The notes under the pieces: model-generated | The model's database searches: none | What the model saw: only the letters and a program-made list of their open reading frames with translations | Told to the model about the DNA's origin: nothing | Program-made: the position numbers and the translations under genes | Shown: piece by piece, positions 16,079 to 17,583 of the stretch | Layout of the letters: the number at the start of each line of letters is the position of its first letter | Position numbering within the stretch: the first letter of the stretch is position 1 | From: Minisyncoccota bacterium | GTDB taxonomy: Bacteria; Patescibacteriota; Minisyncoccia; Phycocordibacterales; PALSA-1337 | Direction: 5' to 3' | NCBI GenBank assembly: GCA_041666915.1 | Contig: JBAYFZ010000001.1 | Span: forward strand, 9,086 to 73,085 | Length of the DNA stretch: 64,000 nt

Positions 16079-16181
16079 TTTTTAATTACTAATTACTAAA
16101 TAAATCCCAATAAACAAGCTCCAATTAGACATTGGAATTTGGTCATTTCTTAGAAATTAAAAATTAGTAATTAGAAATTTT
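16079..16181. repeat. 103-bp AT-rich palindromic repeat, copy A (upstream of rpoD)
   Basis: Near-identical to 17481-17583 except for an 11-nt central block. Arms 'aatttctaatt...' and '...aattagaaatt' can pair. Confidence 0.75.
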
Positions 16182-16250
16182 GTTCTTAATATGGCTTGCG
16201 TAATCTCTAAAAATACCTTAGAATCTGCTTACTTAATATAAATTCTCCAT

Positions 16251-17480
16251 ATGAGTAAAACAAAAAAGACGACCAAAACGGCTCGTAAATCCTCTAGTCC
16301 TTCTCCAAAAAAGAAGGCTTTGCATGCAAAAAAAGATAAAACAAAGAAGGCAAAGTCTTCAGGATCTTCATCTAAAGTCGCAAAGGTAACCAAGGGTAAC
16401 AAAGCTCAGGATTTTGAGACACGTTCAAACAAACTCATTTCAAAAGGACGTGATCGTGGTTTCGTAACTTATGATGAGATTTTGAAAGAGTTCCCACAGA
16501 TTGAAAACGATATAACTTTTCTCGATGAACTTTACGCCAAACTCGTTACTGCCAACGTTGATGTCCTTGAAGGTGGAGGTTTGTTAGAGGTTGAAGATTT
16601 GAGTCACAAAAAAGTTGCTCCACATATGTCTCGTGGTGCAGATTCTGCCTATGATTCTATTCAAATGTATTTGAAAGAGATCGGTCAGTACCCACTTATC
16701 AACGCTGCACAAGAAAAAGATTTGGCACGAAGAATATTGGCAGGTGATACAGAAGCAAAAAATCTTCTCGCTAAAGCCAACCTTCGTCTCGTTGTCTCTA
16801 TTGCTAAAAAGTATGTTGGTCGCAGTCCAGACCTTACATTGCTTGACCTTATCCAAGAAGGAAACTTGGGACTATTCCGCGCAGTAGATAAGTTTGATTG
16901 GACAAAAGGTTTCAAATTCTCAACTTACGCCACATGGTGGATTAGACAAGCTATTACTCGTGCTCTGGCTGACCAAAGTAGAACTATTCGTGTACCAGTG
17001 CATATGGTGGAAACTATTGCCAAGTATAAACAAGTTGTCAGACGTTTGAGTCATGACCTCGGTCGCGAACCTCTAGCAGATGAGATCGCTATGGAAATGG
17101 ATATGGCCGTAGAAAAGATCTATCAGATTGAAAAGATTGAACAAGATGTTGTCTCTTTGGAAAGTCCAGTTGGTGACGATAGTGACGATGGTAAATCTAC
17201 ACTCCAAGATTTTATTGCTGATGACAAGATTCTTTCACCAGATCAAGAGTCTTCACGCAGAATTCTACGTGATCAGGTCAATATGATCTTGAATGATCTT
17301 TCAGAAAAAGAACGCAAGATTCTAGAAATGCGTCATGGTTTGAACGATGGTATCACTCATACACTAGAAGAAGTTGGAAGAGAGTTCGGAGTTACTCGCG
17401 AACGTATTCGTCAGATTGAAGCCAAGGCTCACGAAAAGATTCGCCAGCATGACAAGATTAACAGACTCAAGAATTACTAA
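16251..17480 (+). CDS. rpoD: RNA polymerase sigma factor RpoD (sigma-70), with Lys-rich N-terminal extension
   Basis: Region 2 '[54 protein letters not shown]'; region 4 '[23 protein letters not shown]'. Confidence 0.95.
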
Positions 17481-17583
17481 TTTTTAATTACTAATTTCTA
17501 AATAAATCCCAATGAGTAAGTCCTAATTAGACATTGGAATTTGGTCATTTCTTAGAAATTAAAAATTAGTAATTAGAAATTTT
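17481..17583. repeat. 103-bp AT-rich palindromic repeat, copy B (downstream of rpoD)
   Basis: Direct repeat of 16079-16181 ('ttaattactaatt.ctaaataaatcccaat...aattagacattggaatttggtcatttcttagaaattaaaaattagtaattagaaatttt'). Confidence 0.75.

Follow-up and report, generated by a model that had tools for sequence, protein, structure and literature searches.

Why is the gene for a primary sigma factor bracketed by two nearly identical palindromes? A sequence-only reading of the window, by which we mean the whole 64-kb stretch of DNA that was analysed, had pointed out two near-identical AT-rich palindromic repeats of 103 nt around rpoD, and had proposed that they insulate the gene as paired terminators or attenuators, that they are footprints of a mobile cassette which carried or captured rpoD, or that they are recombination sites. 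Sequence comparison confirmed the repeat pair and showed it to be slightly wider, as an ungapped direct repeat of 114 nt (16068-16181 versus 17470-17583) with 106 of 114 positions identical (93%). The BLAST alignment prolongs the repeat past a 4-nt indel (CTAA), giving 16068-16188 for copy 1 and 17470-17594 for copy 2, both on the plus strand. Six of the eight mismatches cluster in an 11-nt variable segment on the 5′ side of the inter-arm spacer, which reads AAACAAGCTCC in copy 1 (16112-16122, plus strand) and GAGTAAGTCCT in copy 2 (17514-17524, plus strand), and all six are transitions (A/G, A/G, C/T, C/T, T/C and C/T). The remaining two, at 16074 and 16095 in the 5′ arm, swap A and T, the mismatch density being 2/103 in the arms versus 6/11 in the loop. 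The copies had been described as identical except for the 11-nt centre; the six central differences agree with this description, but one arm mismatch also falls within 16079-16181. There was no mismatch between the copies in the 3′-terminal 59 nt, and 100 dinucleotide shuffles of the window yielded no 59-nt match. Over 1693 nt covering both copies, a JGI assembly made independently (L002) was 100% identical, indicating that the repeat pair is not an assembly artefact, and this explanation was ruled out.

The bracketed gene, rpoD (16251-17480, plus strand), encodes a primary, group-1 sigma-70 factor of 409 aa with regions 1.1, 1.2, 2, 3 and 4. The repeats do flank it directly, as had been claimed: copy 1 ends 63-70 nt before the ATG, and copy 2 overlaps the stop codon (17478-17480), covering the last three codons and the stop. 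Copy 1 adjoins the upstream zf_Tbcl_2 gene (15508-16062, plus strand; a treble-clef zinc finger with RGG repeats) at its 3′ end, starting 6 nt past its TAA stop, and ends 8-15 nt ahead of the −35 box of the rpoD promoter (TTGCGT-17 nt-TAGAAT, 16196-16224, plus strand). This promoter is homologous to that of the relatives, TTGC(A/G)N-17-TA(C/G)AAT, which is found about 26-29 nt before their rpoD ATG. Copy 1 is also the right-hand border of a 2.3-kb segment specific to this lineage, located in the dnaG-rpoD interval (13869-16190, no strand assigned) and containing an ORF on the minus strand, an NTPase pseudogene with a frameshift, a degenerate tRNA-like sequence and the zf gene. At least 55 of 69 relatives have a dnaG-rpoD spacer shorter than 120 nt; in the window's genome it is 2.38 kb long. 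Downstream, a UvrD/PD-(D/E)XK helicase-nuclease gene (17639-20662, plus strand) is syntenic in the relatives. The order rpoC-dnaG-rpoD-UvrD/PDDEXK helicase-DsbA-RNaseH-HisRS is conserved between the window's genome and its relatives, indicating that rpoD stands at its ancestral place. No integrase, transposase, tyrosine recombinase or reverse transcriptase was listed in the neighbouring gene table within 10 kb on either side.

We then describe the build of the element itself, which consists of 16 degenerate heptads, in which (AATTNCT)4 makes up the 5′ arm and units of the (TTAGNAA) type the 3′ arm, with a loop between them. The first half runs through four AATTNCT units, AAATAAA, TCCCAAT and two units of variable sequence, and the second half through TAGACAT, TGGAATT, TGGTCAT, TTCTTAG, AAATTAA, AAATTAG, TAATTAG and AAATTTT. 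The autocorrelation at lag 7 and at lag 14 was 0.53-0.58 (0.55-0.58 for lag 7) against a null of 0.34 (p<0.0005; both copies, each arm), and both copies thus show the 7-nt periodicity of a heptanucleotide simple sequence repeat (SSR) of the STRR-like kind in non-coding DNA. Head-to-tail, near-perfect tandem units were not seen in either copy; the units vary (AATTTCT, AATTTTT, AATTACT and others) and are laid out as a palindrome. The earlier suggestion that each copy can fold into a long imperfect hairpin was borne out, since RNA folding gave minimum free energies (MFE) of −25 to −32 kcal/mol (z of −3.7 to −4.9) and none of 200 shuffles was as stable, on either strand. The predicted hairpin spans ~100 nt with roughly 33-36 pairs, is AU-rich and contains internal loops. 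Its outer stem is predicted to have 18 bp in copy 1, and 18 perfect pairs followed by 4 further pairs past a 1-nt bulge in copy 2. Fold stability showed no strand asymmetry in these two copies, and in this respect they give no sign of RNA-level selection. A search of the window with Rfam 15 reached the gathering score for two tRNAs only, and a relaxed search of 15950-17700 gave chance-level matches (E 0.4-1), far under the gathering score.

Further copies were searched for at increasing distance. The window belongs to a contig of at least 450 kb from a metagenome-assembled genome of an uncultured Candidatus Paceibacterota (CPR) bacterium. There was no third copy in 73 kb of this contig, made up of the 64-kb window and a 9.4-kb extension. 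A 28-mer exact-pattern scan of GTDB species representatives gave 0 matches, as did an exact-pattern scan of viral contigs, and BLAST against phage and plasmid records returned chance-level matches only. A 20-mer scan of JGI metagenome contigs, a collection that does not hold this strain (L002 was not returned), gave 7 matches, all unrelated; five of the seven were heptad hairpins from GC-rich organisms with the unit TTGGTCA, which we take to be the STRR2 unit. BLAST against 100 fetched loci, 80 related species among them, yielded no homologue of the element. The search for further copies that had been suggested thus found just two in 73 kb and none in 80 related species or public collections, which supports the view that the element is probably not a generic genome-wide repeat, over the 73 kb and the collections searched.

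The direction of copying can be read from the left ends of the two copies. Copy 2 opens with the 11 nt AGAATTACTAA, which encode the rpoD ending K-N-Y-stop. An ending of (K/R)NY-stop closes rpoD in 64 of the 80 surveyed loci, the window's genome included, and in 56 of 79 relatives the last 11 nt of rpoD agree with those of the window at no fewer than 9 positions. The equivalent 11 nt of copy 1, AGAATTTCTAA, match the rpoD end at 10 of 11 positions. Given that the rpoD end is conserved in relatives that are free of the repeat, and that copy 1 retains 10/11 of it, the element is native to the rpoD 3′ end, and we infer that copy 1 was derived from copy 2, the putative parental copy. A left end made of native rpoD codons argues both against a double insertion and against a cassette that imported rpoD. 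In L017, the closest relative (95% RpoD identity), the sequence 3′ of rpoD is unrelated, and in L022, where the zf gene also precedes rpoD, the hairpin 3′ of rpoD is short and of another kind. These two relatives lack the element, indicating that the copy event is specific to the lineage of the window's genome.

In the closest relatives (L003, L005, L007, L020, L022, L024 and L033), heptad-periodic purine-rich hairpins start from the rpoD stop, with purine-rich 5′ arms and TTAGAGG or TAAGAGG units. The AATTNCT and TTAGNAA units of the window look like a flipped, AT-enriched version of these. The element may have grown in situ at the rpoD 3′ end, with the gene's own last codons (AAT TAC TAA) as the first unit, probably via heptad slippage and palindrome formation; alternatively, it may descend, flipped and enriched in AT, from the purine-rich heptad hairpins found there in close relatives. 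A unit of ~121-125 nt, including 11 nt of the rpoD coding end, would later have been copied 1.4 kb upstream. This copying may have been a local DNA-level event, either a duplication followed by a deletion or a gene conversion, and the new copy would have landed at the right edge of the 2.3-kb insert that parts dnaG from rpoD. The near-identity of the copies is best read as the trace of this copying event and not as the need for a matched pair. Palindrome tips are unstable, and loop bases are exposed to deamination; the divergent centre fits either palindrome-tip instability or loop-base exposure.

We also compared the positions of the two copies with the corresponding sites in relatives, as had been proposed. 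At the rpoD flanks of the relatives the repeat was absent, and terminators or other heptad-periodic hairpins were found at both positions. Upstream of the rpoD promoter, L003 and L007 carry ordinary terminators made of a GC hairpin and a T-run. A canonical terminator was present within 150 nt past the rpoD stop in 30 of 80 loci, often within 2-40 nt, with a background of 86/400 at other gene ends; the window's genome, one of the 80, has none there. Structure was compared by z-score instead of raw MFE, because MFE is confounded by GC content. Strong structure (z<−3) occurred 3′ of rpoD in 46% of loci versus 20% of gene ends overall, and in 52% versus 27% in matched co-directional spacers of 60-400 nt (p=5.5e-5). 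Given the terminators and hairpins of relatives at equivalent positions, both copies in the window stand at transcript-boundary positions.

The claim that the repeats are terminators or attenuators insulating rpoD stood in part: the position matches that of terminators in relatives, but the copies fail as canonical terminators, and the function is suggested by position and fold. An intrinsic terminator has a GC-rich stem of ~5-14 bp with at least 3-4 G-C pairs, a loop of 3-8 nt and a U-tract of ~7-9 nt. Neither copy was called as an intrinsic terminator by two consensus scans. The stems are almost wholly A-U, span ~100 nt and contain internal loops, and the T-run amounts to TTTT (16178-16181 and 17580-17583), which is partly paired in the stem, with further T scattered in GTTCTT. 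The equivalent hairpin in several relatives stops 6-15 nt short of the helicase ATG and lacks a T-run, indicating that these hairpins are not complete terminators and would at most attenuate read-through. The sense strand was the more stable one in 22 versus 9 of the relatives' rpoD 3′ hairpins (p=0.014), but this result was discarded because the hairpins had been chosen by their sense-strand stability.

On balance, we lean towards the reading that a heptad-SSR palindrome at the rpoD 3′ end was locally duplicated upstream and that both copies act as non-canonical, probably leaky 3′-end RNA hairpins. As RNA, each copy would form an AU-rich hairpin followed by UUUU at the end of a transcription unit, most likely serving as a non-canonical, leaky terminator and/or as a barrier to exonuclease at the 3′ end. 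The hairpins may also be substrates of RNase III, which the genome encodes: the predicted outer stems attain the helix length of an RNase III substrate (about 20-22 bp or more), and the gene (rnc) is encoded about 46 kb downstream. The outcome would be that the zf gene, rpoD and the helicase gene are split into units with different expression levels, with rpoD insulated.

A functionless by-product is the alternative that survives best. According to this explanation, the pair is a heptanucleotide SSR palindrome that arose via slippage, template switching or gene conversion and is tolerated without any effect at the RNA level. The window's genome was the richest in heptad-periodic tracts: of 18 such tracts, 5 lie in its 64 kb and 13 in the 1.32 Mb of related loci, and shuffled controls contained 1, in keeping with such an origin. 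One tract in the window (56098-56154) is a true tandem heptad array, and a heptad-periodic long hairpin of GTGCAAA units lies between tRNA-Leu and tRNA-Lys (61750-61859, plus strand). A further heptad-periodic palindrome of this class, with the unit GGTAAGA (63383-63444, plus strand), separates the nusB/NUDIX gene from the RNase III gene. The class is also represented in coding DNA. In L028, two heptad palindromes that are almost identical lie 0.8 kb apart, in frame within dnaG and each coding ARSQEP-AGS..KLPAPSS; as in the rpoD pair, their arms are conserved and their centre diverges, which offers a parallel for the local copying proposed at rpoD. An in-frame palindrome of this class is present in dnaG of L023, and in the window's genome the same hypervariable linker of dnaG contains a palindromic insert, also in frame. 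No terminator role is possible for the in-frame palindromes inside dnaG of L028 and L023, which indicates that the class can spread and persist as mere DNA. Moreover, the sequence of the element is conserved in no relative, and heptameric SSRs are over-represented in bacterial intergenic DNA, for which slippage has been proposed (PMC4692102). Against this explanation, both copies lie exactly at gene ends where relatives have terminators, and strong structure 3′ of rpoD is enriched over matched spacers. The scarcity of differences in the arms relative to the loop would also fit a pairing constraint, although gene conversion gives the same pattern. We therefore regard a pure by-product as possible but rather doubtful, and keep to the leaky 3′-end hairpin as the preferred reading.

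A bolder picture extends to the Paceibacterota of this clade. Undescribed, self-propagating heptad palindromes might arise there from 7-nt slippage, be copied over short range, replace core-gene terminators and insert in frame at dnaG linkers; the rpoD pair and the hairpin in front of rnc would then act in RNase III-dependent processing or attenuation, with the number of heptads tuning sigma dosage. As a whole we consider this unlikely.

It could also be supposed that the copies are a MITE-like or REP/RPE-like mobile palindrome with more copies elsewhere, two of which came to lie beside rpoD by chance. The long terminal inverted arms are what such an element would have, the window contains a separate palindromic repeat family with 3 copies that is also found in other species, and L018 carries a 190-nt palindrome 3′ of rpoD with a partial second copy 6.5 kb away. 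The element itself, with its 2 copies in 73 kb, had no true matches in the GTDB, JGI (without this strain), viral, phage and plasmid sets or in the 80 related loci. No target-site duplication was found at its borders (flanks GTGAG|...|ATATGG versus CTCAAG|...|CCTCTG), and an inserted element would not have supplied a left end that consists of conserved rpoD codons. A mobile palindrome is thus quite improbable.

Two further explanations we consider scarcely credible. One takes the repeats as site-specific recombination or cassette sites (attC/VCR-like, or attL/attR), by which rpoD would be excised, captured or amplified as a unit. The resemblance lies in the superficial layout, a gene between imperfect palindromic direct repeats of ~120 nt with conserved arms and a variable centre. 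Against it, rpoD is at its ancestral locus, the bracketed unit has its own promoter, there is neither an array nor a third copy, no tyrosine recombinase or transposase is encoded within 10 kb on either side, and neither RYYYAAC in the 5′ arm nor GTTRRRY was found, the sole GTT at the 3′ end being that of GTTCTTA. The suggestion that rpoD had been brought or picked up by a mobile cassette accordingly found no support, given the ancestral position of the gene, the native coding sequence at the left edge of copy 2, the lack of integrase, transposase and reverse transcriptase genes within 10 kb on either side and the lack of attC cores. Prophage att sites were rejected together with the attC/attL/attR reading, given the ancestral rpoD and the lack of a recombinase within 10 kb. 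As to recombination sites in general, nothing favours a dedicated site, but direct repeats of 114 nt could still recombine homologously. The other explanation, a DGR-like template/variable repeat pair or another targeted hypermutation of the 11-nt centre, draws on the clustering of the differences (6 in 11 nt versus 2 in 103 nt), all six being transitions; but the changes include A<->G as well as C<->T and are not adenine-specific, the variable segment is a non-coding loop, no reverse transcriptase is encoded within 10 kb on either side, and six transitions out of six are weakly unusual, with an estimated p of about 0.09 at a 2:1 transition bias.

The element belongs to known kinds, namely palindromic and heptameric repeats of intergenic DNA that occupy terminator positions. 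REP elements make the mRNA upstream of them more stable and can reduce read-through, and Rickettsia palindromic elements (RPE) also insert in frame into genes, for which the related palindromes in dnaG of L028 and L023 offer a parallel. With REP/BIME, ERIC, Correia, RUP and RPE elements the copies share the ability to form hairpins, a length of about 100-150 nt and a location at gene ends. In contrast to REP, MITE and RPE elements, two copies were seen (in 73 kb), without a cross-genome family or a target-site duplication; native coding sequence forms one end, and the element is built from SSR units with no unique consensus. Like intrinsic terminators, the copies lie between a stop codon and the next promoter and combine a hairpin with a short U run, whereas the hairpin is ~100 nt long and AU-rich, with internal loops and a U-tract of 4 nt. 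With RNase III hairpins (T7 intercistronic hairpins, the rnc leader, rRNA stems) they share long near-perfect dsRNA helices of at least 20 bp between cistrons, predicted in the case of the window, but show no sequence similarity to them; a further link is that the GGTAAGA heptad hairpin lies directly upstream of rnc in the same genome. Integron attC sites and Vibrio cholerae repeats are likewise imperfect palindromic direct repeats of ~120 nt with conserved arms and a variable centre, but here there are no core sites, no integrase and no array, and the bracketed gene is essential, syntenic and driven by its own promoter. Heptameric SSRs are a known over-represented class of bacterial intergenic DNA, and those of Calothrix and Nostoc (STRR), Xanthomonas (GGGAATC) and Beggiatoaceae (TAACTGA) are intergenic, sometimes forming inverted arrays with stem-loops (PMC4692102, PMC4679880). 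The intergenic location, the 7-nt unit and the fast change of sequence and length between relatives are shared with them (PMC4692102, PMC4679880). Unlike STRR-type SSRs, the units in the window are degenerate (AATTNCT and TTAGNAA), the whole array is palindromic with its start inside a stop codon, the host is a CPR bacterium rich in AT, and a near-identical second copy lies 1.4 kb away. A full-text search gave no paper that joins Patescibacteria with the intrinsic terminator, and the literature on STRR or heptanucleotide hairpins and on Patescibacteria terminators gave general context only.

Taken alone, the pair is of limited importance: the bracketing of rpoD looks like the work of a hairpin at a terminator position that was duplicated locally, with no sign of rpoD mobility. 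It indicates that long AU-rich heptad-SSR hairpins can be used by CPR genomes, or are at any rate tolerated, where relatives have canonical terminators, and that local copying of such palindromes goes along with arms that stay conserved and tips that change fast. The dnaG-rpoD neighbourhood of the clade appears as a hot spot for heptad palindromes, in-frame dnaG copies included, and the clade-wide behaviour of these heptad-periodic palindromes, including their in-frame copies in dnaG, is the more interesting lead. If the hairpins form RNA 3′ ends, they would offer a handle on termination and operon insulation in Patescibacteria.

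A 2.3-kb lineage-specific insert at 13869-16190 separates dnaG from rpoD. Within it are a minus-strand 126-aa ORF that has a terminator of its own and, also on the minus strand, an NTPase_I-T (DUF84) pseudogene carrying a frameshift (14361-14907); about 0.5 kb of the insert is structured DNA without coding capacity. We also observed a degenerate tRNA-like sequence at 15292-15361 on the minus strand, with a partial inverted copy about 100 nt away (15197-15238). The Rfam tRNA model scored 15292-15361 at 24.4 bits (E 0.011), below the gathering score of 29, and ARAGORN made no tRNA call there. 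Its acceptor pair is G3:U70 and its anticodon-like loop, TTAGCAA, is Ala-like. This sequence may be an integration-site remnant or a pseudo-tRNA. At the 3′ side of the insert, the zf_Tbcl_2/RGG gene closes with three successive in-frame stops (TAA TAG TGA, 16060-16068), directly 5′ of the first copy of the rpoD repeat. On the other side of rpoD, a promoter-like TTTACT-16-TATACT occupies 17605-17639. This site stops 6 nt short of the helicase ATG, and its use as a promoter would yield a leaderless mRNA. Both rpoD and the helicase gene, and the relatives of each, lack a Shine-Dalgarno motif in the start regions inspected.

Palindromes were also found in frame within dnaG (11934-13868 in the window), which has two hypervariable linker sites. 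In the window's gene, a 41-aa in-frame insert at a linker (12462-12600) is strongly palindromic at the nucleotide level (z -5.2 for the DNA fold). Of the fetched loci, L028 carries two near-identical in-frame heptad palindromes in dnaG, one per linker site (945-1002 and 1733-1792), and L023 carries one such palindrome at 3050-3181. These in-frame elements behave similarly to the RPE elements of Rickettsia.

Further heptad-periodic elements lie elsewhere in the window. A near-perfect palindrome of GGTAAGA units at 63383-63444, also seen in the fetched loci L101/L102, occupies the gap that runs from the NusB/NUDIX stop (63411) to the RNase III start (about 63453), and an independent Logan assembly shows the identical sequence. 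By analogy, it may resemble the autoregulation of E. coli RNase III, in that long double-stranded RNA would lie immediately 5′ of rnc. A 110-nt hairpin (61750-61859) sits between tRNA-Leu and tRNA-Lys. Its unit, GTGCAAA, is also that of a tandem array of 4 units located 5.6 kb away (56098-56154); therefore, one heptad unit recurs at separate loci.

A second palindromic family is GC-rich (TGTCATTCCCGCGAAGGCGGGAATCC...) and is arranged as paired inverted halves, with a fold MFE as low as -72 kcal/mol. Its copies are located at gene ends, and the window has three of them (20673-20796, 36595-36696 and 61994-62097). The family was also found in other species of the clade, with copies in the fetched loci L069 (12697-12771 and 14147-14216) and L087 (807-942 and 3043-3183), and is conserved across genomes, whereas the rpoD repeat is not.

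In the relative L018, which derives from the same JGI sample, a 190-nt near-perfect palindrome (11234-11426) lies directly 3′ of rpoD, with a partial second copy 6.5 kb downstream (17678-17734); the whole rpoD-helicase spacer folds at -119 kcal/mol. The scan of JGI metagenome contigs with a 20-mer of the rpoD repeat recovered unrelated GC-rich soil-metagenome contigs (L010, L012, L014 and L015) with hairpins of TTGGTCA / TGACCAA heptads, the former being the cyanobacterial STRR2 unit. Given these hairpins, heptad-periodic hairpins appear to be widespread far outside CPR.
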